A stretch of DNA of 64,000 bases from Minisyncoccota bacterium (GCA_041658985.1 JBAZZC010000003.1:10540-74539), one strand, 5' to 3'. Numbered from the stretch's first letter, positions 2,699-52,793 are shown. Numbers and translations are program-made. The notes: generated by a model not told the origin, from the sequence alone.

Positions 2699-2834
2699 AT
2701 CCGCACACCAACTTTAGTATTGTGTCTTATCGTTGCGGGTATGGTAATTATACTATGTAGTGGTGGGGATAAAAACACTGAGAAGTATACTTATATTAGA
2801 CACGGAGCAACGATACTAAAGTTGGTGTGCGGAT
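2699..2834 (+). repeat. R135 inverted-repeat element, copy A
   Basis: Termini are ATCCGCACACCAACTTTAGTAT ... ATACTAAAGTTGGTGTGCGGAT. Inner modules TGTGTCTTA and CGTTGC are permuted between the arms. Confidence 0.8.
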
Positions 2835-3147
2835 GAATTTGAAAAAAAAGATTACATTAAAAGGTTTTGAGGTTTTTTGGTTCCAAAATATAAATCTCTA
2901 AGCAACTAAGCGTTTACGTTTACGAGTCTTTCTACGAGGACATTCTGGGTATTACTTTATGTAATATTCTGGAATTATCCTTTGTGAAAAACTTAGCTTT
3001 TGGTTTGATTATTGAAAGTGTTGCTTAGAGATTTATGTCTTGGAACTATCGTCCCGCCGACTGGCGGCTTTTTTGTTCCCAAAGATTATCTCTATTTACT
3101 AGTATAGATATGAAACAATTTTCTGCAAGAGTTTTTAGTATTAGAGC

Positions 3148-4824
3148 CTATTCGGTTTCAATGTCAACCACTCTTTGCAATTCTTCCAAAGTAGTTATCC
3201 CTTGCAAAACTTTTAATATACCGTCTTGTCTTAAGTTCAAAATGTTTTGGGGTTTGGCGGCTTTTTCTATTTCTCTTTCACTTGGGTTATCCTTAACTAC
3301 ATTTTCAATATTTTCGTCCATGGTGATGGCCTCGTAGATTCCTATTCTACTTTTGTATCCAAGCATATTACATTTGTCACATCCGACTGCTTGCCAGATA
3401 TGTGTTTGGTCAATTCCATCTAAGTATGTTTTGTCAGTTATCGTATCTAAAATCTTATCTATGGTTACTTTACTCTCTCCATTAAGTGAAATCTGTTTTT
3501 TACATTCTGGGCAAAGTACTCTGACCAACCGCTGGGCTATTGCAAGATTTAAGGCAGAAGAAATAATTTTTGGATTAACTCCGAGGTCAATTAGGCGAGG
3601 GAATGTTCCTGCTGCCGTGTTGGTGTGAAGGGTAGAGAAGACAAGGTGACCCGTCAGGGCCGAGTTGATGGCAATCTCTGCTGTTTCTCCGTCTCTAATC
3701 TCACCAACCATAATAATATCGGGGTCCTGGCGAAGGGCACTTCGCAGACCTTCAGCAAATCCGTAATTCTTTTTTTCGTCTGTTTGGGTTTGAACTATTC
3801 CTGGCAGATGATACTCAATCGGATTTTCTATGGTGATTATTTTTATTTCTGGAGTGTGAACTTTTCTTAGAAATGCGTACAGTGCGGTAGTTTTACCAGA
3901 GCCGGTTGGACCAGTATTCAAAATCATGCCGTTTGGCTTACTCATCTCATGGAGAATAATTTTTAACAGACGTGGATGAATTCCTAAACTCTCAAGCGGG
4001 ACAGAAATAGAATTTGGATTAAGAACTCGAAGCACCACTGATTCGCTGTATGCTCCTGGCAGAAGGGAGGTTCTGATTTCAATTTCACCTTCGTTTATTT
4101 TTATACTAAAACGACCGTCCTGTGCGCCATAAACATTTAATTTTAAGTTAGAAATTAGTTTGATACGGGAGAGGAGTAATTTATATGTTTCTAAATCAAA
4201 ACGTAAAATATCAGTGAGCATACCGTCGAGTCTGTATCTTAACCTGACATAGTCTTCCTCTGCTTCTAGGTGGACATCAGAGGCGTTGGTAGCGATTGCT
4301 CCGGCTAAAATGATTTCCATTATTCTGGAGATACGGTAACTTTTTTTCATTTGCAAAACTTCCTCAATCAGACTTTGAACATCGGGTATAGTGTGAACTT
4401 TGGCTAAAAAGTCTGTGATTTGTTCGTTGGAAATATCCAAAGCCCCTGACTTTGTTTCAAATGAATATGATAAATCTTTATATCTGTCCCAGACTTTATT
4501 CAAACTGGCGTGGGAAACCATAAAAAGTTCTATGGTGTAACCTTTGGCTTTCAAGGCATTTAAGGCTTCTACTGTTTTAGGGTTTTCGGGAGATAGAGCT
4601 CCAATACTTAGAACTTTATCAACTTCATTGAACACGGCGATTTGGGCTTCGCGTGTTTCCACCTCCCCGATAACCCGAAGGGCGTCTATGTTTATTGGGG
4701 TAATAGTTAAATCAAGATAAGAGACCCCGTACTTTGACGACAGTATTTGAGCAAGCTCTTCTTCCTCTTGTCTGCGGAGGTCGTCCACTCGTTTATTTTG
4801 TTTGTCTTCATCAAAGATAACCAT
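3148..4824 (-). CDS. pilB: Type IV pilus assembly / type II secretion ATPase (PilB/GspE family)
   Basis: Walker A motif GPTGSGKTT, a GspE N-terminal domain and a C-terminal CxxC zinc motif; 558 aa. Confidence 0.85.
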   Translation of the reverse strand: MVIFDEDKQNKRVDDLRRQEEEELAQILSSKYGVSYLDLTITPINIDALRVIGEVETREAQIAVFNEVDKVLSIGALSPENPKTVEALNALKAKGYTIELFMVSHASLNKVWDRYKDLSYSFETKSGALDISNEQITDFLAKVHTIPDVQSLIEEVLQMKKSYRISRIMEIILAGAIATNASDVHLEAEEDYVRLRYRLDGMLTDILRFDLETYKLLLSRIKLISNLKLNVYGAQDGRFSIKINEGEIEIRTSLLPGAYSESVVLRVLNPNSISVPLESLGIHPRLLKIILHEMSKPNGMILNTGPTGSGKTTALYAFLRKVHTPEIKIITIENPIEYHLPGIVQTQTDEKKNYGFAEGLRSALRQDPDIIMVGEIRDGETAEIAINSALTGHLVFSTLHTNTAAGTFPRLIDLGVNPKIISSALNLAIAQRLVRVLCPECKKQISLNGESKVTIDKILDTITDKTYLDGIDQTHIWQAVGCDKCNMLGYKSRIGIYEAITMDENIENVVKDNPSEREIEKAAKPQNILNLRQDGILKVLQGITTLEELQRVVDIETE

Positions 4825-4861
4825 GTAAATATAATAACATTTCTTTTCAAGACACGCACAA

Positions 4862-4992
4862 AATCAAGAGTTTCTTTTTCATTGTATCTCTCAGAGAGAC
4901 ACGCATAAATTTCTGCTGAAATTTTGCTTGAGTTCGGCTCGACAGCCTCACTAGTCTCTCTTCAAGACACAACTCAACAAAACTCTTGATTT
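4862..4992 (+). promoter_or_regulatory. Conserved promoter/operator module, copy 1: TTGTAT-17-ATAAAT with a TCTCTCAGAGAGA palindrome in the spacer and a distal GTCTCTC
   Basis: About 85% identical to the reverse complement of 60462-60580, which lies upstream of recA. The -35 is at 4882-4887 and the -10 at 4905-4910. Short flanking inverted repeat AAATCAAGAGTTT / AAACTCTTGATTT. Confidence 0.55.
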
Positions 4993-5010
4993 TTAGCACC
5001 ATTAACTTAT

Positions 5011-5039
5011 TTGACAGAAGTGATAAAAGGGTGTATAAT
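5011..5039 (+). promoter_or_regulatory. Consensus sigma70 promoter (TTGACA-17-TGnTATAAT) for the GC-rich lipoprotein gene
   Basis: TTGACA at 5011-5016, a 17-nt spacer, and an extended -10 (TGTATAAT) at 5032-5039. A GGAGG Shine-Dalgarno lies at 5055-5059. Confidence 0.6.
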
Positions 5040-5069
5040 GTGGGATAGAGGCATGGAGGTGCCTGCGGT

Positions 5070-5729
5070 ATGAAAACATTGAGATTGCTCATGGTGTTAG
5101 CGGTCGTCGTTTCGGTGGCGGCCTGCGCCGGCAAGGTGGCTCCGGCCACCATTCCGCTCAGTGAGCGGATCGCCGAACTCAAGGCCCAGGAGGCCGAGAG
5201 GTTGGCGAACGAGACCCCCGAGGACCGGGCCATCAGGGCTCGCGCCGAGGAAATCGAGCGCGAGATGGCGACGAAGAAGGCCCGCGAGGAGGCCAAGAGG
5301 AGTGGCTCGCCGGCCATGCGCAAGGCCATTAAGGAGTTTGAGAAGGCCAAGAAGGCCATCACGAACTCCGGCCTTCAGGGGTGCGACCCGAGTACGGTCG
5401 ACGTCCACCCGGATGTGGCGCCGCGTCGGAACGCTAGTTCAACCGTGAAGGTTCAGGCGTTCAATCAGGGGCAGGTCCCCGTTGATATCTATGAGCCAAA
5501 ACACGGGCTAGTCGTTCGCAACCTGTGCCCCGGAGGGTCACTGACCCTCTTCCGGGCACGTCGGCTCGGGATTGACCCGGACTACATCCAGTTTCGGTAT
5601 GTCGCCAAGGCGATATTGTCGGACGGGCGGATGCTGACGGCTGAGTCACAGCAATACCAACTATCCAAGTACGACTGGTCGTCCGGTCGAGGGCGACAGG
5701 AGTACGACTGGTACATCGAGGTTCGATGA
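5070..5729 (+). CDS. Hypothetical secreted lipoprotein, GC-rich (about 62% GC), probably horizontally acquired
   Basis: Signal peptide with a lipobox (LAVVVSVAACAG). A strong promoter and Shine-Dalgarno precede it. The high GC makes the overlapping antisense ORFs artefacts. Confidence 0.6.
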   Translation: MKTLRLLMVLAVVVSVAACAGKVAPATIPLSERIAELKAQEAERLANETPEDRAIRARAEEIEREMATKKAREEAKRSGSPAMRKAIKEFEKAKKAITNSGLQGCDPSTVDVHPDVAPRRNASSTVKVQAFNQGQVPVDIYEPKHGLVVRNLCPGGSLTLFRARRLGIDPDYIQFRYVAKAILSDGRMLTAESQQYQLSKYDWSSGRGRQEYDWYIEVR

Positions 5730-5767
5730 GGTAGTCCACGCAACGTGCTGGCACCTCTGCACAACTG

Positions 5768-5810
5768 CCGGGAGGAGGGGTTCACACCCATCCTCCCAGG
5801 CGGTTTTTTC
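5768..5810 (+). terminator. GC-rich hairpin plus T-run terminator after the lipoprotein gene
   Basis: GGGAGGAGGGG ttcaca CCCATCCTCCC followed by GGCGGTTTTTTC. Confidence 0.55.
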
Positions 5811-5925
5811 ATCCAGGCACCAACTAAACGAGTTGAGCTCGTTTTTTCAATTTTTATTTTTGTTATTCGATGAACAGAATTGGCTAGAAGTAATACCGTG
5901 ATCTCGTTTAGTTGGTGCCTGGATG
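5810..5925 (+). repeat. Divergent R135-family element with perfect 25-bp terminal inverted repeats and an internal terminator-like hairpin
   Basis: CATCCAGGCACCAACTAAACGAGAT and its exact reverse complement ATCTCGTTTAGTTGGTGCCTGGATG. The interior has AACGAG-ttgag-CTCGTT followed by TTTTTT. The arm consensus resembles copy A (ATCC..CAC.CAACT). Confidence 0.6.
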
Positions 5926-5932
5926 AATATAA

Positions 5933-6066
5933 ATCCGCACACTAATTTTGCCATCGTTCTATTTTTTAAAACAAAACCAATACCATTTTTATTTTCTTAC
6001 TCAACTTCACACAAGTTAATATATTTGATTTAGAACTAAAAATAATGGCAAATTTAGTGTGCGGAT
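5933..6066 (+). repeat. R135 inverted-repeat element, copy B
   Basis: ATCCGCACACTAATTTTGCCAT ... ATGGCAAATTTAGTGTGCGGAT. It ends 22 nt before the tsaE start codon. Confidence 0.8.
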
Positions 6067-6088
6067 AAAATTATGCTAATATGTCTTT

Positions 6089-6523
6089 ATGAAATTTGTT
6101 TCAGAAAATTTAGAACAAACCCAAAAAATCGCAAATGATTTTGTCTCTACACTTTTATCAAATCCTGATAGGGCGACGGTTGTTGGTTTATACGGAAATC
6201 TTGGTGCAGGAAAAACCACATTTACTCAGTGTATAGCCAAAGCTTTTGGTGTGATTGATACAGTAACAAGTCCGACTTTTGTCCTGGAAAAGATTTATGA
6301 ACTAACCGACCAAAAGTTTACCCACTTAATTCATATAGATGCATATAGAATAGAAAAATCCAGTGAGCTTTTACATCTTGGTTGGAATGACTTAATTTCT
6401 GACCCAAACAACATAGTTCTTATTGAATGGCCAGAGAGGGTAGCGGACATTATGCCAGAGCATATAAAAATAAATCTTAGTCATATAACAGAAAATAGTC
6501 GGGAAATTGAGATTTTGGAATAA
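6089..6523 (+). CDS. tsaE: tRNA threonylcarbamoyladenosine biosynthesis protein TsaE
   Basis: P-loop motif YGNLGAGKTTF; the ~140 aa YjeE-family length fits TsaE. Confidence 0.8.
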   Translation: MKFVSENLEQTQKIANDFVSTLLSNPDRATVVGLYGNLGAGKTTFTQCIAKAFGVIDTVTSPTFVLEKIYELTDQKFTHLIHIDAYRIEKSSELLHLGWNDLISDPNNIVLIEWPERVADIMPEHIKINLSHITENSREIEILE

Positions 6524-6531
6524 TGGTATAA
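6522..6531 (+). promoter_or_regulatory. Extended -10 element (TGGTATAAT) placing a transcription start at the first nucleotides of R135 copy C
   Basis: TG at 6524-6525 and TATAAT at 6527-6532, about 7 nt upstream of the element start at 6535. Confidence 0.35.
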
Positions 6532-6534
6532 TTC

Positions 6535-6669
6535 ATCCGCACACTAAATTTGGCATTATCTCATAGTTGCTATACATGTGGTTATGTCAAATTTAATAAT
6601 CATGTTTAAATATAAGTATGCATCTAGAATTTGAGATAATAGCAACGATGCCAAAATTAGTGTGCGGAT
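6535..6669 (+). repeat. R135 inverted-repeat element, copy C
   Basis: ATCCGCACACTAAATTTGGCAT ... ATGCCAAAATTAGTGTGCGGAT. It ends 3 nt before the polA ATG. Confidence 0.8.
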
Positions 6670-6672
6670 AAA

Positions 6673-9024: not shown

Positions 9025-9103
9025 TGTATAACGTATTATGTATAAAACACTGACCCAGATTCCATACGTTATACTTTATACATAATACTTTATACATACT
9101 CAT

Positions 9104-9817
9104 ATGATTTATTTTTTACACGGCACAGATACACACAAAAGTCGGAAGAAAATGCATGAAGTTTTGCAGAGTCTTTCTGCTAAAAGACCAAATTCTGAAA
9201 TTTTTAAAATAACAACGGAAAATTGGAGCGAGGGGCAATTCAATGAGCTTTTAGAATCACAGGGATTATTTGATAAAAAATATATTGTTGTTTTAGATTC
9301 TCTTTTCTCAAACAAGGAAGCTAAGGAAATTGTTGCGGGTGGATTAAAAAAAATGCAAGAAGCAGAACATTGGTTTTTGATTTTAGATGGCAAGATTGAT
9401 TCAGCAACAGTAAAAAAAGTAGAAAAAGCCTCTTATAAATCACAGGAATTTAGTGAGAAGGAAGTAAAAAAAGAATCACCAATCATTTTTTCTATTACAG
9501 ACAAACTTTTAAACAGAGATAAAAAGAAATTATGGATTTCATTTACTGATTTGTTAAGTCAGGGAATACCAGTAGAGGAAATTCACGGAGTGCTTTTTTG
9601 GGCAATGAAAAATATGATTATAGCCGGAAAGGTTTCAAGTCAAAAAGAATCTGGGTTAGCACCTTTCTCATACAGTAAAGCGCTTTCTGGAAGTAGAAAC
9701 TATAAATCAGAGGAATTACAAAAAATGTCATCCGATTTGATTGAGATGACACACAGGGTTCGTCAGGGGGAGGGGGATTTAGAAGTGATGATGGAGAAGT
9801 GGATTTTGGAGAGATAA
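9104..9817 (+). CDS. Hypothetical protein, possibly a DNA polymerase III delta subunit (HolA-like)
   Basis: N-terminal MIYFLHGTD resembles the start of the delta subunit. It lies directly downstream of polA. The similarity is weak. Confidence 0.4.
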   Translation: MIYFLHGTDTHKSRKKMHEVLQSLSAKRPNSEIFKITTENWSEGQFNELLESQGLFDKKYIVVLDSLFSNKEAKEIVAGGLKKMQEAEHWFLILDGKIDSATVKKVEKASYKSQEFSEKEVKKESPIIFSITDKLLNRDKKKLWISFTDLLSQGIPVEEIHGVLFWAMKNMIIAGKVSSQKESGLAPFSYSKALSGSRNYKSEELQKMSSDLIEMTHRVRQGEGDLEVMMEKWILER

Positions 9818-9821
9818 ATTC

Positions 9822-9865
9822 TTAAAAACGAAAGGGGCCCCAAGCGACAAAAATGTCGGGGCCCC
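9822..9865 (-). terminator. GGGGCCCC...GGGGCCCC hairpin, T-rich on the minus strand
   Basis: Two self-complementary octamers at 9834-9841 and 9858-9865, followed on the minus strand by TTTCGTTTTTAAG. Confidence 0.4.
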
Positions 9866-9884
9866 ATGTCGGACCAGACCGAGG

Positions 9885-10034
9885 TTACCGGAGAACGTTG
9901 TCGTGTCTCAGTCGTCGGCGGAAATCACCGAGAAGGAGACGAATGACAAGTCCGGCAACAATCACGTAGGCTAACATCGCTGCGCCTACGACGGAGTCTT
10001 TCACTGCCACCACGGAAGACGTTATCTTGTGCAT
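9885..10034 (-). CDS. Small GC-rich hydrophobic peptide (49 aa), hypothetical
   Basis: ATG preceded by an AAGGAGAGG Shine-Dalgarno. Hydrophobic core LAYVIVAGLVIRLLL. GC is about 57% against a ~34% background. Confidence 0.35.
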   Translation of the reverse strand: MHKITSSVVAVKDSVVGAAMLAYVIVAGLVIRLLLGDFRRRLRHDNVLR

Positions 10035-10313
10035 CCGAACCTCTCCTTGGTGAGTTGTGACCTCTTTGATTAATGCTACTCAGAAGTTTAGAAAAAGCAA
10101 ATATAAGAATTAAACAGGGTGTGAATTGGACTTTCTTGAGATTTTTGTTATATTTTGTAGGTTAATAGAGTGTTTACGGTCAGGGATAATTTTCTTGCCG
10201 TCGCAAGAAAATTTCCACGACCCTGCCTCGCCTGTTTTGCATGGTAGCAAAACATGGCTGTGGCTCGCAAAAGCTTTTAATAAGTCAAAGCAGTTTGATT
10301 TATTAAAGCATTT

Positions 10314-10386
10314 GCGCCCGTAGCTCAGTCGGTAGAGCAGCTCCCTTTTAAGGAGATGGTCGCAGGTTCGATTCCTGCCGGGCGCA
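10314..10386 (+). tRNA. tRNA-Lys (anticodon TTT)
   Basis: Acceptor stem GCGCCCG/CGGGCGC, D-arm TAGCTCAGTCGGTAGAGC, anticodon loop CTTTTAA, T-arm GGTTCGATTCC. Confidence 0.85.
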
Positions 10387-10660
10387 CAATTAAAAAATCT
10401 CTGTGGTGGGGATTTTTTAATTGTGCGCCCGGAGCAAGAGTGTGGGGCACTCTTGCGTCAGGAATCGAACAGATTCACGGTTTACGCTCGCAGAAGCGAG
10501 TGTTGTGAATCTGCGTTTTAAATTCTGATGAGTGACGACGAATCAGAATTTAAAAAGATTCCGTCCAGAAAAGGTGTACTGACCATGTAATGGTCGATAT
10601 TCCTGCCGGGCGCACAAACCAAAAAATCTCCACTGCTGGAGATTTTTTGCACTAGTGTGC
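10387..10660. repeat. tRNA-Lys 3'-end duplications and hairpin repeats (scars of site-specific integration)
   Basis: A direct copy of the tRNA 3' end (CGATATTCCTGCCGGGCGCACAA) lies at 10595-10617. An inverted, interrupted copy lies near 10425-10475. Hairpins AAAAAATCTCC..GGAGATTTTTT are shared with repeats at 18566-18703 and 23259-23396. Confidence 0.55.
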
Positions 10661-10775
10661 TGACCGGAATACAATATAATTATAATAACTTTTAGTTGAG
10701 AGTTGAGTTTAGGTTTTATAAAAAGCAGGCACACAGAGATTCCCTGTGTGCCTGTTCAAGTGGTACTCTCCGACC

Positions 10776-12185: not shown

Positions 12186-12196
12186 TTCTCAAACCT

Positions 12197-12270
12197 CCAG
12201 GTTTGATACTACAATGTTGATAGTCTTTTCTAGGAACTTCTAAGTTTGATAATACAATGTTTATAGGTCT
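12197..12270. repeat. Imperfect tandem direct repeat (~31-bp unit GTTTGATAcTACAATGTTgATAGTCT) upstream of the radical SAM gene
   Basis: Two units at 12197-12226 and 12239-12270. Confidence 0.5.
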
Positions 12271-12326
12271 ATTGTCAATATTTAAATAAAATTTACACCG
12301 CCCTCATCTCCCTAATATACAACAGC

Positions 12327-12749: not shown

Positions 12750-12805
12750 AGAAATGTTTTGGTTGTGATTTCTTACGATTTGTTGTCTTTCTGCGTTTAA
12801 ATCAC

Positions 12806-14484: not shown

Positions 14485-14487
14485 TAA

Positions 14488-15972: not shown

Positions 15973-16011
15973 ATTTCTCTATTTTACAACAAAATTACCC
16001 AAAATGCTTTA

Positions 16012-16146
16012 CCCGCACACCAATTTTGGCATTGTCTCTATATTGCCACATCAATAATTATATAAAGAACGAGTCATTTTCATCTAAGTAAGGTTGTTTA
16101 ATTATCTTGAGAGACTGGGCAATGATGCCAAATTTGGTGTTCGGGT
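16012..16146 (+). repeat. R135 inverted-repeat element, copy D
   Basis: CCCGCACACCAATTTTGGCAT ... ATGCCAAATTTGGTGTTCGGGT. It ends exactly at the mutM stop codon. Confidence 0.8.
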
Positions 16147-18565: not shown

Positions 18566-18703
18566 GTGGTCAGGAATATTTTGCTCGTCGTCACTCGCAA
18601 AATTTCATGACCCTGACTCAGCTGTTTTTTCTGTTGAAAAAACATGCTTCCGTCCAGCACATAACAATAAAAATCTCCAGCAGTGGAGATTTTTATTGTT
18701 ATG
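18566..18703. repeat. tRNA-flanking hairpin repeat X1
   Basis: About 85% identical to 23259-23396. Contains a 22-bp-stem hairpin GCACATAACAATAAAAATCTCC..GGAGATTTTTATTGTTATGTGC abutting the tRNA 3' end. Confidence 0.7.
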
Positions 18704-18775
18704 TGCTCACGGCAGGAATCGAACCTGCATTTCTCCCTTCGCAGGGGAGTGTCTTATCCATTCAACGACGCGAGC
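18704..18775 (-). tRNA. tRNA-Arg (anticodon GCG as read; the exact anticodon needs checking)
   Basis: Acceptor GCTCGCG/CGTGAGC, anticodon stem CTCCC/GGGAG with loop CTGCGAA, T-arm GCAGGTTCGATTCCTGC. Confidence 0.65.
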
Positions 18776-19893: not shown

Positions 19894-20277
19894 ATGAAAT
19901 ATCTTGGTATTGATTATGGTTCAAAACGAATTGGCCTGGCGGTTTCTGATGAGGCTGGTAGTTTTGCTTTTCCCTTGAAAGTTTTAAGTAATTCAGAAAA
20001 TCTAATTAAAGAATTGGTTGAAATATGTAGGGAAAACAATGTGGAAGGGGTTGTGGTGGGGGAGTCAAAAGATTATCTTCAAAAAGACAATGAGATTATG
20101 GATGAAATTTTGCCATTTGTTGAGGATTTAAAAAATGTACTTAACCTGCCAATATATATGCACCCAGAATTTTTGACTTCCCAGGAGGCCGAGAGATTGC
20201 AGGGTAAAAACGATATGCATGATGCTAGTGCAGCGGCTCTTATTTTAAAAAGTTATTTGGATTCATCCGCACACTAA
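19894..20277 (+). CDS. ruvX: Putative pre-16S rRNA nuclease / Holliday junction resolvase-like protein YqgF (RuvX)
   Basis: MKYLGIDYGSKRIGLAVSD N-terminus typical of YqgF. Confidence 0.8.
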   Translation: MKYLGIDYGSKRIGLAVSDEAGSFAFPLKVLSNSENLIKELVEICRENNVEGVVVGESKDYLQKDNEIMDEILPFVEDLKNVLNLPIYMHPEFLTSQEAERLQGKNDMHDASAAALILKSYLDSSAH

Positions 20278-20395
20278 GTTTAGCATCGTTGCCATTTTTT
20301 GTGGTTTGGCTAACGTTCAATTTTTTGTAATATCCCGTGTATTATAGTTGTATGTGTTGTGGCAACAAAAATAATGCTAAACTTAGTGTGCGGAT
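20265..20395 (+). repeat. R135 inverted-repeat element, copy E
   Basis: ATCCGCACACTAAGTTTAGCAT ... ATGCTAAACTTAGTGTGCGGAT. The left arm overlaps the ruvX stop codon. Confidence 0.8.
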
Positions 20396-23258: not shown

Positions 23259-23396
23259 GTGGTCAGGAATATTTTTGTTTCCGTCAAAACAAAAATTTCA
23301 CGACCCTGACTCGGCTGTTTTTTCTACTGAAAAAACATGCCTTCGTCTAGCACATAACAACAAAAATCTCCAGCAGTGGAGATTTTTGTTGTTATG
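23259..23396. repeat. tRNA-flanking hairpin repeat X2
   Basis: About 85% identical to 18566-18703. Same hairpin abutting the 3' end of tRNA-Arg(TCT). Confidence 0.7.
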
Positions 23397-23468
23397 TGCT
23401 CTCGGTTGGAATCGAACCAACATCAAAGCCTTAGAAGAGCTCTACTCTATCCATTGAGCTACGAGAGC
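23397..23468 (-). tRNA. tRNA-Arg (anticodon TCT)
   Basis: Acceptor GCTCTCG/CGAGAGC, anticodon loop CTTCTAA, T-arm GTTGGTTCGATTCCAAC. Confidence 0.75.
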
Positions 23469-29067: not shown

Positions 29068-29178
29068 TGAATCCCGTACGAAATTTATGTTATTTGTCTT
29101 ACGGGATAAATATTAGTAAATAATAGTTAATAAAAAATAAAGGTGAATAAATAGCTTTTATTTCGTACGGGATGAATT
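29068..29178. promoter_or_regulatory. Three ATCCCGTACGGGAT-type (CGTACG-core) sites between SHOCT and csoR
   Basis: TGAATCCCGTACGAAAT (29068-29084), TTACGGGAT (29099-29107), and ATTTCGTACGGGATGAATT (29160-29178, overlapping the csoR ATG). The outer sites are mutual inverted repeats. Confidence 0.5.
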
Positions 29179-36067: not shown

Positions 36068-36203
36068 CATCCGCACACTAACATTAGTATTGTGTCTTAC
36101 GTTGCTCTACTGGGTATTAAACAGAGTAATGAAGGATAAAATGATGAAGTAAACAAATCAAGATTAGACACAATTGCAACGATACCAATGTTAGTGTGCG
36201 GAT
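36068..36203 (+). repeat. R135 inverted-repeat element, copy F
   Basis: ATCCGCACACTAACATTAGTAT ... ATACCAATGTTAGTGTGCGGAT. The interior is related to copy A. It ends 8 nt before the next ATG. Confidence 0.8.
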
Positions 36204-42012: not shown

Positions 42013-42018
42013 AATAGC

Positions 42019-43212: not shown

Positions 43213-43241
43213 ACCCATAAGGCAATGTTATAATCGGGTTT

Positions 43242-44960: not shown

Positions 44961-44999
44961 TTATTTACAAAAGTATATATTTTAGTTAATATTTAAGTA

Positions 45000-45178
45000 T
45001 AAGCAGTAAAGAGACCAATCACCTCTATGGCTTTGGGAAGAAAGCAGAAATGCAAATAGAACCCAACGGGTGGCCCGTTATAGCCGTAAAGAGAAGTAAG
45101 CAAGGTGGTACCACGAGAAACTCGTCCTTGCATAGCAAGTGTTTGCTGTGTAGGGACGGGTTTTTTATTACAAAAAAT
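45000..45178 (+). promoter_or_regulatory. T-box riboswitch leader with an AUC (Ile) specifier upstream of ileS
   Basis: T-box sequence AAGGTGGTACCACGAG (45102-45117). A 16-bp terminator stem plus GGTTTTTT follows at 45122-45168. The specifier loop ACCAATCAC carries AUC followed by a purine, in the AGAG/CTCT stem at 45010-45030. Confidence 0.55.
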
Positions 45179-48100
45179 ATGGAAAAAGAAAAAATAGAAA
45201 AAAGTGAAGTTGCACTGAAAGAAGAAAAAATCCTGGAGTTTTGGGAGAAAAGTGAAATTTTCAAAAAAACCCTAGAAAAAGAGGCACCAAAAGGGGAGTT
45301 TGTCTTTTACGATGGGCCTCCATTTGCCACTGGTTTGCCTCATCAGGGGACATTGCTTGGTTCCATTGCTAAGGACCTAATTCCTCGCTACAAAACGATG
45401 CGAGGCTACAGTGTGCGTCGTAGATGGGGTTGGGATTGTCACGGTTTACCTATAGAAAATCTTGTAGAGAAGAAACTTGGCCTCAAGCATAAAAAAGATA
45501 TTGAAGAAATGGGTATAGAAAAATTTAACGAAGAATGTCGCAGTCAAGTGTTGACATATGTTCATGATTGGAAAGTGTACATTGACCGCGTGGCTCGTTG
45601 GGTTGATTTTGAGGGCTCTTACAAAACCATGGATTCTAGTTATACCGAAAGTATTTGGTGGGCACTCAAACAAATGAATGACAAAGGCTTGCTTTACGAA
45701 GGCAGAAAAGTTCTTTTGTATTGTCCAAGATGCGAGACTCCTCTTTCTAAAGCAGAGATTGCTATGGACAACTCATATAAAGATATAACGGAAGAGGCGG
45801 TGACAATAAAGTTTAAAATAAAAAATCCAGAAAAACATAAATTACCCCAGAACACATATTTACTTGCATGGACAACAACCCCGTGGACATTACCTGGAAA
45901 CGTTGCACTTGCAGTTGGTAATGATATTGAATATCAAGTAATGAAAAAGGGGCAAGAAACCTATGTTGTTTCTACACAGGTATGGAAACAGGGAATCTTG
46001 GGAGAGTTTGGCAACCTAGCAATAGGAGATGTTCGTAAGGGGGCTGATTTGGTTGGTTTGGAATACGAACCACTTTACGAAATACCTGTTGTAAAAAATA
46101 GTGGCAAAAAAGCTTGGTATGTTACCTCGGCTGATTTTGTTAATACAGAAGAGGGAACGGGTATTGTGCATACGGCGGTAATTTATGGAGAGGATGACTA
46201 TCAACTTGGTCTAAAAGTTGATTTACCAATGGTTCCACTGCTTTTGCCAAATGGAGAGTTTAATAATGAGGCTCCGGAATTTATTCGTGGAATGTATGTG
46301 AAAAAGGCCGAGAGATATATAAAAGAAGATTTGGAAAAAAGAGACTTGCTTTTCAGTAAGACCATGAACACTCACTCATACCCTCATTGTTATCGTTGCG
46401 AAACCCCCCTTATATACAACGCTCTCTCAAGCTGGTTTATTAATATTCAAAAAATAAAAAAACAAGTTATTGATTTGAATGAAAATATAAACTGGGTTCC
46501 GGACCATCTTAAACATGGACGTTTTCTAGATATTGCTCAAAATGCTCCGGACTGGACAATAAGCAGAAATCGCTATTGGGCATCGCCACTGCCAATCTGG
46601 AAAGATGACAAGGGTAAATATATTGTTATTGGAAGTATTTCTGAACTTAAGGATTACATTGGTCGTCGCAATAATTATTTTCTCTTACGTCATGGAGAAT
46701 CGGAAGGAAATGCAAAGGGTGTTATAAGTTGTAAGAAAGATGGTAAAGACTCACTGACTTCTCTTGGTAGAGAAGAATCTCTCTCTTCTGTAAAAGAACT
46801 CAAAAATAAAAAAATAGACATTATTATTTCATCGCCTTTTGTAAGGACACGTGAAACTGCCGAAATTATTGCCGAAGAGATGGGGATTCCAAAAGAGGAA
46901 ATTATCTATGATGATTTGCTTGGTGAGATTTCTTGTGAAAAGTACGATGGGGAATTGTGGACAGGTTTTAATTTCAGGAAAAAAGAAGAAGGGGTTGAAA
47001 CTCCACGCCAGGTTCTCTCGCGAACAATGAAAGTTATGTATGGATTAGATAAAAAATATGAAAGCAAAAACATTTTAATTATTGGACACGGGGGACCACT
47101 TAGAATAATCAAACTTGCGTCAAGTGGTTTAGCAGAGGAAGATATCATGAAGCATTATTATGATGACCCACCAAGAAACGCAAAAACGATTGACTGTGAT
47201 TTTGTGGCATTGCCTCACAATGGGGCATATGAAATTGATTTACACAGGCCATACATTGATGAGGTTGTGCTACATGACAAAGACGGTTCTATTCTCAAGC
47301 GAATACCAGAGGTTATTGACTGTTGGGTTGAATCTGGGTCAATGCCTTTTGCCGAATATAATTATCCGTATTCAAATAAAGAAGAATTTGAGAAAAGAGC
47401 TCCAGGAGATTTTGTGGCTGAGTATATAGCCCAAACCAGAACTTGGTTTTACTACATGCATGTCATCTCTACGGCTCTTTTTGGACGGGAATCTTTTAAA
47501 AATGTTTTGACTACCGGAAATATTCAAGCCAGTGACGGAAGTAAAATGAGTAAGTCAAAGAGTAACTACACAGACCCATTGCTTCTCATGAATAAATACG
47601 GTGCTGACGCTCTGCGTTACTACATGATGACTTCTGTTGTGATGCAGGCAGAGGATTTAAACTTTAAAAATGATGATGTCAAAGAAGTTAACCAAAGAAT
47701 GTTAAATATCTTGCGAAATGTTTTATCTTTCTATGAAATGTATAAGACGGATTTTACTGGAATCCCAAGCAAAAATAATGTTTTGGATAAATGGATTTGT
47801 TCTAGGTTGGCAGTTTTGCACAAAGAAGTAACTGAGGGTCTGGAGAAGTATGACACAATCCGTTCTGGGCGGCCGATAAGACTTTTTATAGAAGATTTAT
47901 CAACTTGGTATTTGCGTCGCTCAAGAGACAGATTCAAATCAGAAAACTTAGAGGAGAGAAAAGAGGTCTCAGAATGTACCGCTTTTATTTTGGTAGAACT
48001 TGCAAAAATAATGGCTCCGTTTACGCCATATATTGCCGAGGAAATTTATCAGGGTGTTAAAGGAAAAAATCATAAAGAAAGTGTACATTTAGAAAATTGG

Positions 48101-48604
48101 ACAGAAAGCATGGAGGATTTTTTAGACAGGGAACTTATTGTTCAAATGCAAAAAGTCAGGGAGGTGGTTACCCAAGCCTTAGATTTACGTCAGAAAGCTG
48201 GGTACAGTGTTAGACAACCTCTGCCATCTCTTGTTGTGTCGCAAAATTTTTCTAAAGAACTATTAGATATTATTGCTGATGAGGTCAATGTAAAAGAAAT
48301 AAAGGTCTTGGAAGGAAGTGAGGTAAGATTGGACACAACCTTAACCGAAGAATTGAAAAACGAAGGAATTGCTCGTAGTGTTATTCGTGGTATCCAGGAT
48401 GTAAGAAAAAATGAAGGTCTTAATCCAGGCGAGAGAATAAAGCTGATTATTTGTGCAGATGAAAAAATAAAATCTGTGATTGTTTCTTTTGAGATTTTAA
48501 TCAAATCTCCAACACAGGTGGTGGAGATAATATACTCAAACGAAAAACAAACTCACGCCATTTCTTTGGGTTCCGGCGAGATGACGGTAACAGTATCTAG
48601 ATAA
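45179..48604 (+). CDS. ileS: Isoleucine--tRNA ligase with an inserted histidine-phosphatase (PGAM-like) domain
   Basis: PHQGT (a HIGH variant), WTTTPWTLPGN, and KMSKS. An internal segment of ~190 aa carries the LLRHGESEGN and IIGHGGPL catalytic motifs of the histidine phosphatase superfamily. Start moved to MEKEKIEK, downstream of the T-box. Confidence 0.85.
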   Translation: MEKEKIEKSEVALKEEKILEFWEKSEIFKKTLEKEAPKGEFVFYDGPPFATGLPHQGTLLGSIAKDLIPRYKTMRGYSVRRRWGWDCHGLPIENLVEKKLGLKHKKDIEEMGIEKFNEECRSQVLTYVHDWKVYIDRVARWVDFEGSYKTMDSSYTESIWWALKQMNDKGLLYEGRKVLLYCPRCETPLSKAEIAMDNSYKDITEEAVTIKFKIKNPEKHKLPQNTYLLAWTTTPWTLPGNVALAVGNDIEYQVMKKGQETYVVSTQVWKQGILGEFGNLAIGDVRKGADLVGLEYEPLYEIPVVKNSGKKAWYVTSADFVNTEEGTGIVHTAVIYGEDDYQLGLKVDLPMVPLLLPNGEFNNEAPEFIRGMYVKKAERYIKEDLEKRDLLFSKTMNTHSYPHCYRCETPLIYNALSSWFINIQKIKKQVIDLNENINWVPDHLKHGRFLDIAQNAPDWTISRNRYWASPLPIWKDDKGKYIVIGSISELKDYIGRRNNYFLLRHGESEGNAKGVISCKKDGKDSLTSLGREESLSSVKELKNKKIDIIISSPFVRTRETAEIIAEEMGIPKEEIIYDDLLGEISCEKYDGELWTGFNFRKKEEGVETPRQVLSRTMKVMYGLDKKYESKNILIIGHGGPLRIIKLASSGLAEEDIMKHYYDDPPRNAKTIDCDFVALPHNGAYEIDLHRPYIDEVVLHDKDGSILKRIPEVIDCWVESGSMPFAEYNYPYSNKEEFEKRAPGDFVAEYIAQTRTWFYYMHVISTALFGRESFKNVLTTGNIQASDGSKMSKSKSNYTDPLLLMNKYGADALRYYMMTSVVMQAEDLNFKNDDVKEVNQRMLNILRNVLSFYEMYKTDFTGIPSKNNVLDKWICSRLAVLHKEVTEGLEKYDTIRSGRPIRLFIEDLSTWYLRRSRDRFKSENLEERKEVSECTAFILVELAKIMAPFTPYIAEEIYQGVKGKNHKESVHLENWTESMEDFLDRELIVQMQKVREVVTQALDLRQKAGYSVRQPLPSLVVSQNFSKELLDIIADEVNVKEIKVLEGSEVRLDTTLTEELKNEGIARSVIRGIQDVRKNEGLNPGERIKLIICADEKIKSVIVSFEILIKSPTQVVEIIYSNEKQTHAISLGSGEMTVTVSR

Positions 48605-48712
48605 TTTCTAATTTTCAATTCTCAATTTTCAAACAATTTCCAATTATAAAATTTCTGAATTAGTAGATTAATTTATTTTTTAGACATTAAAAATTAGAAA
48701 TTGAAAATTTTT
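48603..48712. repeat. AT-rich inverted-repeat pair related to the four-helix-bundle cassette IRs, between ileS and recO
   Basis: TAATTTCTAATTTTCAATTCTCAATTTTC ... AAAAATTAGAAATTGAAAATTTTT. Shares the TAATTTCTAATT start with 551-593. Confidence 0.45.
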
Positions 48713-49300
48713 CTCATGTCCTATCACATTTACACCACAGATGGAATAATTTTAAAACGCAAAACATTTGGAGAAGCCAATGTCTTGTTACATGTTTTAA
48801 CTTATGATTTAGGTTTAATTATTGCTTCGGCTCAGGGGGCCAGACTGTCTTCTTCTAAGCTTCGTTCGGCCCTTCAAGAATATACACTTAATTCCATCTC
48901 GTGCGTTAAAGGTAAAAATGGATGGAAAATGACAAACGCTGTAGAAAAAGAAAACTTCTTTTTTAATTATCCTGCTTATTCTCACAAAACTTTGTCCCAA
49001 GTTGGCTTTGTCTTATTAAAGATGATTCCTGGAGAATCTCCCCACAAAGAAATTTTTCAAACCATAAAGACAGGTTTTGAATTTCTGAAATTTTTGCCGG
49101 AGAAACATGTATCAGATTTTGAGGTTTTGATTGTTTTGCGTATTTTACATCAGCTTGGATATGTAGAAAACAAAAAAGACACAGATAGCTTTTTAGAAAA
49201 TAATGAAGAGTGGAACGAATTAATTCTTGAAAAAGTACTAAAAAACAAGAAAAACATCATTCCAATAATAAACAAGGCCCTAAAGGAAAGTCAGTTATAG
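48701..49300 (+). CDS. recO: DNA repair protein RecO
   Basis: N-terminal OB fold (DGIILKRKTFGEANVLLHVLT) and a Lys-rich region (KGARLSSSKLRS). TTG start. Confidence 0.65.
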   Translation: MKIFLMSYHIYTTDGIILKRKTFGEANVLLHVLTYDLGLIIASAQGARLSSSKLRSALQEYTLNSISCVKGKNGWKMTNAVEKENFFFNYPAYSHKTLSQVGFVLLKMIPGESPHKEIFQTIKTGFEFLKFLPEKHVSDFEVLIVLRILHQLGYVENKKDTDSFLENNEEWNELILEKVLKNKKNIIPIINKALKESQL

Positions 49301-49312
49301 TCAACGTTTAAA

Positions 49313-51229
49313 TTGTTGTGGTATAATATTTGGATGGAATTCGAAAAAAGCAGTATAGAGCGTCTAAAAAGGACTTTATATTCTAGAAATGAAAATGTTG
49401 TTCCGAAGGAAAAACGTACTCCTGTTTCTGGTAAAGAAGTCAATGCCCCTACCGACTGGGGCACAAAACCATCTTTTGATATTCCAATTGACGATACCAT
49501 GACCAAACGAAATCATTCATTTTTTAACAAATTTCTAATTGGTTCTTTCGTTTTCTTTTTTGTTGCCCTTGCTGTGGCTGTTTTTATCTTTTTTGGAGGA
49601 ATGAATACCATTTCTTCCAACAACTTAAATATAAAAATAGTAGCTCCGAGTTCCATGTCTTCTGGAGAAGAGCTTCTGGTGGAGCTTTCTATTATAAATG
49701 ATAATCGTGCAGATTTAGAGCAGGTGGCCTTTTTCGTTGATTATCCAGAGGGAGCTTTGTCAGTTGGAGAAAACAAACCTTTGTCCCGTGATAAAGTAGA
49801 TTTGGGTGTTATTTCTAGTGGTGGCAGTAAAGATTATGTGGTTCGTGCAATATTGTCTGGCGAGAAAGAAACAGTTAAGACTTTTCATTTCAAAATAGAA
49901 TATAAAGTAAAAGGGTCAAATGCTGTTTTTTCAAAGGAAAAAACTTATGATGTCATAATTAGTTCATCACCAATCATTCTAGACGTTTCATATCCAAAAG
50001 AGATAAATTCTGGTCAAGAGGTAAACTTGTCTATAGATTTAATTTCTAATTCAAATGTGATAATTAAAAACTCTCTAATAAAAATTGAATATCCATACGG
50101 TTTTACTTATAAAAACTCAAACATAAAACCTTCAAGAGATAATTCTGTTTGGAATACAGGCGACCTGAAAAATGGTGATAAAAAAACTTTGCTAATTAAT
50201 GGTGTTTTGGTTGGTCAGAATTTAGAAGATAGGTCTTTCAAAATATCTGCGGGGACCCAAAAACCTGGAACAACAGTAGATTTTGAAACGCCATTAGCTA
50301 CTAGTGTGGTGACAATAGGAATACGCAAGTCATTTTTTGATCTTGTTATCGATTCAGAGCCTGTCTCAGTAATGGGTTATCTTATGCCAGTGACAATTAA
50401 GTGGCAAAATATTTTACCTGATAAGATATTGAACACAAACATAGTGGCAACAATCTCTGGGAATATTTTTGACAGAACAACTGTGAAAGCTAACGATGGT
50501 GGATTTTATAGGTCAGTTGATGATACTATCCTTTGGGACAAAAACAGTACAAGTAATTTAACAAGTATCTCTCCGGGTGATTCCGGTGAGGTCTCATTTC
50601 TAATTTCTTCTCTTCGAGATTCAATTCAGACTAAGTCAATAAAAAATCCACATATTGACGTAAATATAAAATCAACAGGAGACCGCTCTGGAACAGAAAC
50701 TGGAATAGTCTCGTCCAGTGAAAATATTACAATAAAAATTTCGTCATCCTTTGTGCTTACCGTCAAAGCTTTTCGTAATCTCGGACCGTTTAGTAATATA
50801 GGACCTATTCCTCCTAGAGCAGATAAAGAATCTACTTATACAGTAGTCTGGACATTGACCAATGCGAATAATGATCTGAAAGACACCTTAGTGACAGCTG
50901 TCTTACCAGCCGGAGTAGAATGGAAAAATGAAATTTCTCCTATCGGGGAAAAATTAAGTTTTAACCAGGAAACAAGAGTCTTATCATGGAATATAGGTAA
51001 TGTCTCCTTAGGTACAGGTTTCACTTATTCACCAAAGGAAGTTTATTTTAAAATTGGAATAATTCCAAGTGTTAGTCAAATTAATTCTATTCCAAATTTG
51101 CTTTCTAAAATTAATTTAATAACCACTGATACTTATACAGAAACACAACTAACATCTGATATTTTTTCGGTTACTACCCAGTATTCTGACCCAAGTTATA
51201 AAAGTGGTGATAATATGGTTGTGAAATAA
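49313..51229 (+). CDS. Large membrane-anchored extracellular hypothetical protein
   Basis: N-terminal transmembrane helix (FLIGSFVFFFVALAVAVFIFFGG) followed by ~550 aa of beta-rich repeats. Confidence 0.5.
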   Translation: MLWYNIWMEFEKSSIERLKRTLYSRNENVVPKEKRTPVSGKEVNAPTDWGTKPSFDIPIDDTMTKRNHSFFNKFLIGSFVFFFVALAVAVFIFFGGMNTISSNNLNIKIVAPSSMSSGEELLVELSIINDNRADLEQVAFFVDYPEGALSVGENKPLSRDKVDLGVISSGGSKDYVVRAILSGEKETVKTFHFKIEYKVKGSNAVFSKEKTYDVIISSSPIILDVSYPKEINSGQEVNLSIDLISNSNVIIKNSLIKIEYPYGFTYKNSNIKPSRDNSVWNTGDLKNGDKKTLLINGVLVGQNLEDRSFKISAGTQKPGTTVDFETPLATSVVTIGIRKSFFDLVIDSEPVSVMGYLMPVTIKWQNILPDKILNTNIVATISGNIFDRTTVKANDGGFYRSVDDTILWDKNSTSNLTSISPGDSGEVSFLISSLRDSIQTKSIKNPHIDVNIKSTGDRSGTETGIVSSSENITIKISSSFVLTVKAFRNLGPFSNIGPIPPRADKESTYTVVWTLTNANNDLKDTLVTAVLPAGVEWKNEISPIGEKLSFNQETRVLSWNIGNVSLGTGFTYSPKEVYFKIGIIPSVSQINSIPNLLSKINLITTDTYTETQLTSDIFSVTTQYSDPSYKSGDNMVVK

Positions 51230-51272
51230 GGAAAGTGGCGAGAATCTAGCATCTAAGTTAATATAGGGTATT

Positions 51273-52661
51273 ATGACTGAAAACAAGAATGACAGAATGG
51301 AAAAGATAGTCTCGCTTTGCAAGAGACGTGGTTTTGTTTATCCATCCTCAGAAATATATGGTGGTTTTGCCGGTGTGTATGATTTTGGACCAATGGGAGT
51401 TGAGCTTGAAAATAATCTCAAAACACATTGGTGGAAATGGATGGTTCATAAAAGACAAGATGTTGTTGGACTAGACTCTAGTATTTTTATGAGCCCACAA
51501 ATTTGGGAGGCCTCTGGTCATACTAAGGGTTTTTCTGACCCAATGGCTGAGTGTAAGGAATGCAATACCAGAATAAGAGTCGATAAGGTACTAAACGATT
51601 TAGGAATTTTTGCTGATGAAAAAATGTCCGAAGAAGAAATCAACAAGCTTTTTGATGAGAATAAATCAAAAATTAAATGTCCTAATTGTAAAAAGCAAAA
51701 TTTTACAAAAGTCAGGAAGTTTAATGTGTTGGTAAAGTCCAATCTTGGTGATTTTACTGAATCCAATTCTAGTCCGTCATATTTGAGAGGAGAAACTTGC
51801 CAAGGGATATATGTAAATTTCAAAAACGTTCTTGATTCACAGCATCCAAAATTGCCTTTTGGTATTGCTCAGATTGGTAAAGCATTTAGGAATGAAATTT
51901 CTGCAAGGCAGTTTCTTTTTAGACTCAGGGAGTTTGAACAGATGGAAATGGAATATTTTACAAGGCCAAAGGATGAAATGGGTGAATATGAAAAATTAAA
52001 AGAATATAGATGGAAGGCAATTTTAAGTCTGGGAATTAAAGAAGAAAATTTGCGATGGAAAAAACACGATAACTTGGTTTTTTACGCAAAAGAAGCATAT
52101 GACATAGAATACAACTTTCCATGGGGATTTGATGAACTAGAGGGGATTCATGCTCGTGGAAATTACGATTTAACACAACATTCTAGTGGGTCAGGAAAAG
52201 AATTGGTCTATCAAGACGAAGAAACAAATGAAAAATTTATTCCGCACATTGTTGAGTCGTCTGGTGGTGTCAGTCGGTTATTTTTTGCAATTCTTTGTGA
52301 CGCTTATCATGAAGACGAAATGGGCGGAGAGACTAGGATTCTTCTAAAACTAAAACCAAGTATTGCACCAATTAAGGTTGCTGTTTTTCCACTTCTAAAA
52401 AACAAACCAGAACTTGTAAATAAAGCCAAGGAAATTTTTGGTTTATTAAATGAAGAAATTCAACCGGTAACATTTGACGATAATGGAAACATAGGCAAAC
52501 GATATCGTAGACAAGATGAGATTGGCACACCATTCTGTGTGACGATTGATTTTGAAACAATTGAAAAAGATGCTGGAGTAACTGTTCGTAATCGTGACAC
52601 TGGAGAACAAGAAAGGGTTCCTGTTATTGAGCTAGTTTCATATCTTAAATCTAAAATATAA
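51273..52661 (+). CDS. glyQS: Glycine--tRNA ligase (dimeric alpha2 type) with a Zn-ribbon insertion
   Basis: Class II motifs (FRNEISARQFLFRLREFEQMEME), a C-terminal anticodon-binding domain, and a CxxC...CxxC insert. Confidence 0.85.
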   Translation: MTENKNDRMEKIVSLCKRRGFVYPSSEIYGGFAGVYDFGPMGVELENNLKTHWWKWMVHKRQDVVGLDSSIFMSPQIWEASGHTKGFSDPMAECKECNTRIRVDKVLNDLGIFADEKMSEEEINKLFDENKSKIKCPNCKKQNFTKVRKFNVLVKSNLGDFTESNSSPSYLRGETCQGIYVNFKNVLDSQHPKLPFGIAQIGKAFRNEISARQFLFRLREFEQMEMEYFTRPKDEMGEYEKLKEYRWKAILSLGIKEENLRWKKHDNLVFYAKEAYDIEYNFPWGFDELEGIHARGNYDLTQHSSGSGKELVYQDEETNEKFIPHIVESSGGVSRLFFAILCDAYHEDEMGGETRILLKLKPSIAPIKVAVFPLLKNKPELVNKAKEIFGLLNEEIQPVTFDDNGNIGKRYRRQDEIGTPFCVTIDFETIEKDAGVTVRNRDTGEQERVPVIELVSYLKSKI

Positions 52662-52793
52662 ATCCGAACACTAACTTTGGCATCGTTGCACATCTCCACA
52701 CGTAGATGTAAACGATAGTCTAGATGTAGATTCATATTTTGTATTAATACTCACTTAGCAACAAGGAGATAATGCCAAAGTTAGTGTGCGGAT
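52662..52793 (+). repeat. R135 inverted-repeat element, copy G
   Basis: ATCCGAACACTAACTTTGGCAT ... ATGCCAAAGTTAGTGTGCGGAT. It begins 1 nt after the glyQS stop codon. Confidence 0.8.

Follow-up and report, generated by a model that had tools for sequence, protein, structure and literature searches.

Short inverted-repeat elements in a Minisyncoccota genome as probable miniature transposable elements of a small GIY-YIG nuclease

A stretch of 64,000 nucleotides from a Minisyncoccota bacterium (GCA_041658985.1, JBAZZC010000003.1:10540-74539), referred to in its whole length as the window, carries a family of inverted-repeat elements of about 135 bp, named R135 here, and raises the question to which kind of DNA such elements belong and how they could have spread. 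An earlier note made from the sequence alone had described the family without assigning it. The answer we favour, with a probability of roughly 0.7, is that R135 copies are miniature transposable elements with inverted repeats (MITEs) which are mobilised in trans by sibling elements of about 300 bp, the latter encoding a stand-alone GIY-YIG nuclease of 85–90 residues similar to UPF0213 and Slx1.

When the 22-nt terminus ATCCGCACACTAANTTTGGCAT was searched for with up to three mismatches, 14 matches were found in the window as compared to none expected in shuffled sequence, and all 14 fell into seven convergent plus/minus pairs spaced 131–136 bp apart. A covariance model derived from 60 copies of many genomes recovered exactly these seven with 83–102 bits and, with a far lower score, one divergent copy (Table 1). 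The existence of a dense family with inverted termini is thus borne out, and the positions given in the earlier note describe the same seven copies and the divergent one, two of the starts (16012 and 36068) being off by 1 nt. Elements are 131–136 bp long in the window and 124–146 bp elsewhere, and open reading frames (ORFs) inside them are merely incidental. As the termini are palindromic, an orientation can be defined only by the interior, where one arm reads repeat-N-GTTGC-NNN-GTGTTTT and the other, read inward on the opposite strand, repeat-T-GTGTTTTT-GTTGC. By this order of modules and by a score difference of 14–33 bits between the strands, the copies at 2699, 6535, 16011, and 36069 point one way and those at 5933, 20265, and 52662 the opposite way, which corrects the statement that all copies are co-oriented. 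Their intergenic position was described correctly, and the fit to the genes is even tighter than claimed. The first 13 nt of the copy at 20265 provide the last codons and the TAA stop (20275–20277) of ruvX, the last base of the copy at 16011 immediately precedes the stop codon of fpg, which is encoded on the minus strand, and the copy at 52662 begins at the base right after the stop of a class-II aminoacyl-tRNA synthetase gene. The copies at 6535 and 36069 end 3 nt upstream of the ATG of polA and 8 nt before the ATG of a SIMPL-family gene, respectively. As copies contribute stop codons to genes or lie right against start codons, gene calling and operon prediction in genomes of the Candidate Phyla Radiation (CPR) are affected.

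The flanks of 135 copies from many genomes carry the signature of insertion. The dinucleotides right outside the repeats are identical in 72 of these copies, compared to 22.1 ± 4.0 by permutation (maximum 37 in 10,000 trials), and no excess of duplications was found in any other register. The next base out is a pyrimidine at position -3 and a purine at position +3 in 96% of copies, and the inferred targets have the form Y-NN-R (TAAA/TTTA, CTTG/CAAG, CATG, CATA/TATG, and once TATA). The duplicated dinucleotide is AA, TT, AT, TG, CT, or GG and rarely TA; in the window three of the seven copies show a duplication. Comparison of gene order with other genomes, a check which the earlier note had proposed, yielded orthologous gene gaps which carry an element in one genome but none in another. 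Four of the 135 copies lie within 23S rRNA genes; for two copies inserted there the flanks align without a break to the 23S genes of other CPR lineages, which thus represent empty sites. At one of the 23S loci (L020) a disrupted GIY-YIG ORF is present as well, and group I introns occur at L012 and L069.

The enzyme partner came to light through two termini without a nearby mate, which enclose or abut an ORF of 84–88 amino acids with a GIY-YIG domain. When metagenomes were scanned for the R135 termini with a spacer of 256–286 nt, 53 loci at about 300 bp spacing were obtained, 46 of which contain one intact GIY-YIG ORF of 85–90 amino acids and nothing else; since none of the 53 has internal termini, none can consist of two MITEs side by side. 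Among 35 unique copies pairing collapses at position 23, which makes the repeat exactly 22 bp long. The ORF starts 4–8 nt past one repeat (positions 27–30) and in 32 of the 35 ends with the TAG of a conserved TTAGTG in the other repeat, 9 nt from the end of the element. A flanking 2-bp duplication is found in 22 of these copies. Five homologues with 61–69% identity, which had been chosen regardless of their flanks, are all bounded by such repeats with terminus variants including CCCCACAC and CCCAGACAC, and related ORFs with other repeat families also exist (GCCCGGTAGTGAA..., ATCCTGTTAAATAA...). MITEs and ORF-bearing copies occur on shared contigs with matching terminus subtypes, and at one locus (L048) both share a rare asymmetric CCGTACAC end.

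In eight ORF-bearing copies the repeat reaches 6–8 nt into the 3' end of tRNA-Gly or tRNA-Trp, and its outer bases (ACCCGCA or GCCCGCA) restore the acceptor strand of the tRNA. The displaced original tRNA end sits just past the other repeat, after the 2-bp duplication. Insertion beside existing elements is common too, as exemplified in the window by the pair at 5811 and 5933, which lie in tandem 7 nt apart. This suggests that the enzyme may recognise repeat-like half-sites. A mirror image of the 3'-end cases is seen at L194 (about 375–690), where GGGCGC at the end of an ORF-bearing copy's right repeat apparently doubles as the 5' acceptor strand of a tRNA-like sequence (GGGCGCGTGGTGTAGCCTGG). 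At L180–L189 (about 3255–3660) strains share an identical GIY-YIG element beside an xerC/D-like integrase gene, and the DNA downstream of it differs by insertions or replacements of about 70–600 bp, a local hotspot of variation.

The partner protein of 85–90 amino acids consists of the catalytic core and one long C-terminal helix. It matches the Pfam GIY-YIG family PF01541 with E = 1e-15 to 1e-17, and the NCBIfam model of group I intron endonucleases only with 22–24 bits, below its cut-off of 56. Y3, Y5, Y16, G18, R26, H30, and E50 either do not vary at all or reach at least 90% conservation, the catalytic Tyr, Gly, Arg, His, and Glu being without exception in 44 homologues, and the motifs together with the catalytic arginine, histidine/tyrosine, and glutamate on a beta-beta-alpha-beta-alpha core place the protein in the GIY-YIG superfamily. 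An AlphaFold model with a confidence (pLDDT) of 95.7 displays this core followed by the long helix, and the nearest relatives of solved structure are the UPF0213 proteins of bacteria and Slx1, a structure-specific nuclease of eukaryotes (27–34% identity over the core, fold probability 1.0), ahead of I-TevI and UvrC. The family comprises at least 581 clusters at 90% identity, and those listed are annotated solely as GIY-YIG nuclease family protein or putative endonuclease.

Taken by their anatomy, R135 copies are MITEs: small and non-coding, with inverted termini, a duplication of fixed length, dispersed and variable copies, and termini shared with an ORF-bearing element. The earlier impression of an element outside the known kinds is given up accordingly, a MITE being one of the kinds which the earlier note itself had named as speaking against it.

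The structure of the elements bears on how they might be recognised. In the 60 copies of the model the repeat arms are 22 bp long and 97.7% paired. The outer 13 bp, RYCCGCACACYAA, are conserved among copies, with positions 3–13 near-invariant, in part because the search pattern required those bases. The inner 9 bp (positions 14–22) vary freely between copies while complementarity is kept within each copy; double changes are seen at each of positions 14–21 in 10–16 of the 60 sequences, and six different inner-arm sequences occur among the seven window copies. As the arms covary they probably pair with each other. In the alignment the ends are conserved and the middle is more variable, as noted before, but two conserved covarying modules which had been overlooked lie beside the termini. 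These form helix X:X' (GTTGC/GCAAC, 5–6 bp) and helix Y:Y' (GTGTTTTT/AAAAACAC, 7–8 bp) in the order X-Y...X'-Y', which is not nested. The two helices average 4.8 and 5.4 bp when formed from an element's own arms as compared to 3.2 bp for arms of different elements, double changes are found in five of six and six of eight of their pairs, and none of 500 shuffles matched the observed scores. Energy-based folding yields X in some copies and Y in others. The linkers near the helices measure 0–1, about 3, 0–2, and 0–1 nt, from which it follows on geometric grounds that X and Y either alternate or form a strained pseudoknot. As single-stranded DNA the elements fold with -29.5 to -33 kcal/mol (z scores -7.9 to -9.9) on both strands.

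From these data the following course of events is proposed. The two repeats would pair within one strand as a hairpin or cruciform, as suggested by the covariation of the arms and the stable folds of both strands. A dimer of the structure-selective nuclease would recognise the conserved base of the stem and would cut both the element boundaries and new targets with a 2-nt stagger in the manner of other GIY-YIG enzymes, and host ligation or repair would complete excision and insertion. In a compact genome copies would then persist only where a stable hairpin is tolerated, that is in gene gaps, at gene ends, at tRNA ends, and in rRNA loops. The cutting step is modelled on the arm covariation, the affinity to Slx1, and the 2-nt staggered cuts known for GIY-YIG enzymes such as I-TevI and Eco29kI. 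What the data show is the build of the elements, their duplication, and an ORF-bearing partner that occurs together with MITEs; the chemistry of cutting and joining is what we infer.

Several points weigh against mobilisation by the GIY-YIG nuclease. A nuclease alone cannot join DNA, and the case for movement by this one is built from sequence. The duplication is absent or imperfect in 47% of copies, and it is found in 31% of the ATCC-subtype copies, to which the window copies belong, as compared to 67% of the others, the boundary of the ATCC subtype being uncertain by 2 nt since the AT...AT at its ends can be read as a direct as well as an inverted repeat. Empty sites were seen in conserved rRNA genes of distant genomes, and no filled/empty pair was found among near-identical strains, exact-protein look-ups giving only the same strain or locus. 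Interiors of the MITEs show no detectable homology to the ORF-bearing elements beyond the repeats, with matches at chance level only. The public collections were scanned for the termini up to a spacing of 600 bp only; the window and the fetched loci, about 1.4 Mb in total, contained no DDE partner sharing them. Copies within one genome are highly diverged and nevertheless keep their arms paired, which hints at selection on each resident copy and exceeds what a selfish-DNA model with decaying dead copies predicts. Finally, the 64-kb window contains no GIY-YIG ORF. An ORF-bearing sibling is very probably present elsewhere in the same genome, as indicated by circumstantial evidence: the contig of one such nuclease (P0042, in a copy with terminus ATCCGCACACTAAC...) occurs in JGI 3300014208 and SRR6484324, two samples in which sequence identical to the window is likewise present, and in tetranucleotide profile it correlates with the window at 0.989, as closely as other parts of the window's own contig do.

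The alternative which survives best, though we regard it as unlikely, accepts the elements as MITEs and ascribes their movement to a classical transposase, for instance a DDE enzyme of the IS630/Tc1-mariner kind, so that the GIY-YIG gene would be cargo or a homing endonuclease gene which has colonised a MITE. A 2-bp duplication combined with inverted termini is a hallmark of MITEs derived from IS630/Tc1, GIY-YIG enzymes are not known as transposases, and the unrelated interiors of MITEs and ORF-bearing form fit this explanation as well. The duplicated dinucleotides are, however, hardly ever the TA expected for IS630/Tc1. The window encodes no transposase, whatever its class, and none was found among the genes tabulated for the fetched loci. 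Around 190 elements, in CPR sequence of about 1.4 Mb, nearly every terminus is mated within 45–310 bp, and no pair of termini was found at a spacing of 0.7–2 kb. The use of a stop codon inside the repeat by homologues down to 61% identity points to long coevolution of ORF and repeat and not to a passenger.

Slightly less probable again is that the elements are mainly structured RNAs or RNA-processing signals selected by the host, such as RNase III sites, signals for rRNA excision, or stabilising hairpins, with mobility as a historical or incidental trait. Such a role would account for the near-perfect 22-bp stem and the two covarying helices which diverged copies retain, and for the sites in operon gaps, just before start codons, and in 23S rRNA genes, where the hairpin would have to be removable; short non-intron insertions in CPR rRNA genes have been suggested to be intervening sequences of the RNase III type (PMC11270868). 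Stem mismatches show no bias when oriented by the element (21 G:U versus 13 A:C) and a modest one when oriented by transcription of the neighbouring genes (26 versus 10). This bias could reflect selection at the RNA level or strand-biased C-to-T mutation, the latter on leading or coding strands being conceivable because the GC skew of the window is strongly positive. The orientation of the elements is, on the other hand, independent of the direction of neighbouring genes (11 with and 17 against, drawn from the 135 copies), tandem, divergent, and convergent gaps are occupied roughly as the background predicts, and no T-run follows the stem, so that an intrinsic terminator is rejected. Searches of Rfam at gathering and at permissive thresholds gave no real match on the elements, as the earlier note had supposed in recognising no RNA family; above threshold only tRNAs, rRNA, and group I introns were hit, and the elements attracted only sub-threshold matches to generic long-hairpin microRNAs. 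Target duplications, tandem insertions, and the ORF-bearing partner testify to a mobile origin.

Repetitive extragenic palindromic sequences and their paired forms (REP/REPIN) moved by a REP-associated tyrosine transposase (RAYT, a Y1 HUH enzyme related to IS200) are effectively refuted, since the resemblance in conserved inverted ends, less conserved spacer, and long hairpin is outweighed by the lack of a GTAG/CGTC head, by termini (RYCCGCACACYAA) whose single arms are not palindromic, by a target-site duplication which transposition of single-stranded DNA by Y1 enzymes does not produce, and by the gene between the termini, which is GIY-YIG (PF01541) and not a Y1 transposase. Further candidates were rejected as well: a CRISPR or TIGR-like array, as the copies are dispersed singly; an integron attC-like site, as the helices are not nested R and L boxes and the neighbours are housekeeping genes; a DNA uptake sequence, considered because GTGCGG resembles the one of Haemophilus, as the motif is almost never unpaired (25 of 293 motif matches lie outside 135-bp elements, and most of these in shorter or longer hairpin forms); and a classical homing endonuclease gene, as the protein is a bare domain of 85–90 amino acids with many differing insertion sites.

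Outside the window the family is widespread, a point which the earlier note had wanted checked. In one representative genome per species, scanned by exact pattern, the element was found in more than 114 contigs. Among the matches listed almost all carriers are genome bins of Patescibacteria/CPR, comprising Paceibacterota, Kaiser-, Zambryski-, Taylor-, Campbell-, and Moranii-bacteria, and bins labelled Saccharibacteria. A match inside a long ORF of Streptomyces is probably due to chance, and single matches in bins labelled Nitrospira and Bdellovibrionales, which look like typical copies on short contigs, may be mis-binned. The outer stem is also common to shorter forms of 42–75 bp and to a few which are longer. 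Viral contigs were searched for both size classes and no element was found.

Apart from these elements the window is ordinary housekeeping DNA of a small genome with 36% GC, encoding ruvABC, pilB, tsaE, polA, fpg, folD, aminoacyl-tRNA synthetases, recA, ftsK, and seven tRNAs. A sister MITE family with termini ATCCCGTWMGAAAT is represented in it by two copies, each with a 2-bp duplication inside T..A like the R135 signature. The divergent R135 copy has arms of 25 nt with 100% complementarity. The coordinates are collected in Table 1.

Table 1. Positions of R135 and sister copies in the window, and of copies inside 23S rRNA genes of other CPR genomes (own locus numbering). Scores refer to the covariance model; flanks are the three bases on either side.
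Feature	Position	Strand	Termini	Score (bits)	Flanks	2-bp duplication	Setting
R135 copy 1	2699-2834	-	ATCCGCACACCAACTTTAGTAT, arms perfect	97.8 (plus strand 67.1)	CAT...GAA	no clean duplication	between ruvB and pilB (both minus strand)
Divergent copy	5811-5924	+	(TTC)ATCCAGGCACCAAC...GTTGGTGCCTGGAT(GAA)	30.2 (E = 6e-4)			
R135 copy 2	5933-6066	+		83.4	TAA...AAA	AA	upstream of tsaE
R135 copy 3	6535-6669	-		101.9			between tsaE and polA
R135 copy 4	16011-16146	-		96.3	TTT...TTA	TT	
R135 copy 5	20265-20395	+		94.7			
R135 copy 6	36069-36203	-		95.6			between folD and SIMPL-family gene
R135 copy 7	52662-52793	+		96.0	TAA...AAG	AA	
Sister MITE	29071-29173		ATCCCGTACGAAAT		TGA...GAA	GA	
Sister MITE	52838-52965		ATCCCGTTAGAAAT		TGG...GGA	GG	
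MITE and disrupted GIY-YIG ORF, L020	843-1090 and 1992-2125						23S rRNA gene
MITE copy, L012	5716-5854						23S rRNA gene
MITE copy, L005	3800-3937						23S rRNA gene
MITE copy, L001	7201-7338						23S rRNA gene

Other palindromic features of the window were recorded. Between R135 copy 1 and the terminator of pilB lies an element of 167 bp (2880–3046) with 27-bp inverted arms (GTTCCAAAATATAAATCTCTAAGCAAC / GTTGCTTAGAGATTTATGTCTTGGAAC), without an ORF, without a 2-bp duplication, and with termini different from those of R135. Perfect hairpins of 22–24 bp at 10378–10432, 18656–18707, and 23349–23400 have their start within the 3' acceptor strand of tRNA-Lys or of one of two tRNA-Arg; the two at tRNA-Arg are near-identical, and the R135 model gives the one at tRNA-Lys (CCGGGCGCACAATTAA...) a weak score (25 bits, E = 0.006). 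Such hairpins could represent either tRNA terminators or very small relatives of R135. Downstream of the efp region (57735–57802) a perfect inverted repeat of 32 bp encloses a loop of 4 nt. The remaining observations concern genes. A GC-rich island at 4847–5810 (about 47% compared to about 36% for the window), which may have been horizontally acquired, holds a lipoprotein-like ORF of 219 amino acids (5070–5729) without a Pfam match and ends in a canonical terminator of stem and T-run at about 5770–5810. A class I aminoacyl-tRNA synthetase of 1184 amino acids (45050–48604) carries a His_Phos_1 domain (residues 544–697) between the halves of its catalytic domain. A gene of the 23S_rRNA_IVP family (PF05635) is found at 611–958 among ruvC, yebC, and ruvB; this family was first found inside 23S rRNA intervening sequences.

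On a wider proposal our judgement is evenly divided, namely that the elements of about 300 bp constitute a new class of prokaryotic DNA transposon, the smallest autonomous one so far known, with the 88-residue Slx1/UPF0213-like GIY-YIG nuclease as its sole protein. The enzyme would read the hairpin or cruciform of the element's own ends and cut with a 2-nt stagger at Y-NN-R, the host would do the joining, R135 and its sister families would be the MITEs of this class, and many of the short rRNA, tRNA, and intergenic insertions of Patescibacteria would find an explanation. Were this true, a type of nuclease outside the DDE, HUH, serine, tyrosine, and Cas1 enzymes would drive a cut-and-paste-like element not even half as large as the smallest insertion sequences. 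The high content of selfish DNA in highly reduced bacterial genomes (about 2% of the window) would be accounted for, as would part of the odd rRNA and tRNA insertions long noted in CPR bacteria, and an 88-residue enzyme which apparently reads both stem sequence and shape would be a possible compact nuclease programmable by structure. A repeat-bounded GIY-YIG element with its MITEs appears to be undescribed in Rfam and in the searchable literature. GIY-YIG ORFs in non-intron insertions of CPR rRNA genes have been reported together with many uncharacterised short insertions, with no mention of repeats, duplications, hairpins, or palindromes (PMC11270868), and neither Patescibacteria nor GIY-YIG is named in a wide survey of prokaryotic MITEs (PMC11602168).

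Among known systems the Correia elements of Neisseria and the pneumococcal RUP repeats, which are related to IS630-Spn1, resemble R135 in their build: they are non-coding, 100–155 bp long, with inverted termini of about 22–26 bp and a 2-bp duplication, are present in numerous intergenic copies, give rise to long hairpins in transcripts, and are able to provide the ends of genes. In R135, however, the duplication is not TA, the partner encodes a GIY-YIG protein instead of a DDE transposase, and the covariation of the inner half of the repeat and of the two interior helices suggests that structure is recognised as well as sequence. With REPIN and RAYT the family shares inverted ends, a less conserved spacer, and a hairpin, and likewise the arrangement of one small enzyme gene, domesticated or selfish, with many non-coding copies, and long persistence in a lineage; the differences lie in the GIY-YIG partner as opposed to a Y1 HUH enzyme, in the lack of the GTAG/CGTC motif, and in the target duplications. 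The GIY-YIG homing endonucleases of the I-TevI and Seg type, whether free-standing or carried by introns, have the same catalytic fold and are likewise selfish genes in compact genomes, also in rRNA genes. They use a separate DNA-binding domain and one cognate site and rely on recombinational repair, without inverted termini, duplications, or non-coding derivatives, whereas the partner described here is a bare catalytic domain of 88 amino acids in a repeat-bounded gene with many insertion sites. Slx1 and the YhbQ-like UPF0213 proteins are nearest by sequence and predicted fold, and the cutting of branched DNA by Slx1 fits a hairpin or cruciform substrate; Slx1, however, needs Slx4 and a RING domain, UPF0213 genes are single-copy host genes, and neither is known to be repeat-bounded or mobile. 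Intervening sequences of 23S rRNA and the short CPR rRNA insertions (PMC11270868) are similar as hairpin insertions of about 100–200 nt in the 23S rRNA of reduced genomes, R135 differing from them by its mostly non-rRNA locations, its defined termini, and its duplications. The palindromic elements of Rickettsia, finally, are repeats of about 100–150 bp which have spread in a reduced genome and reach gene ends. Neither a target duplication nor an enzyme partner is known for them, their sequences are unrelated to R135, and they often lie in frame within genes.

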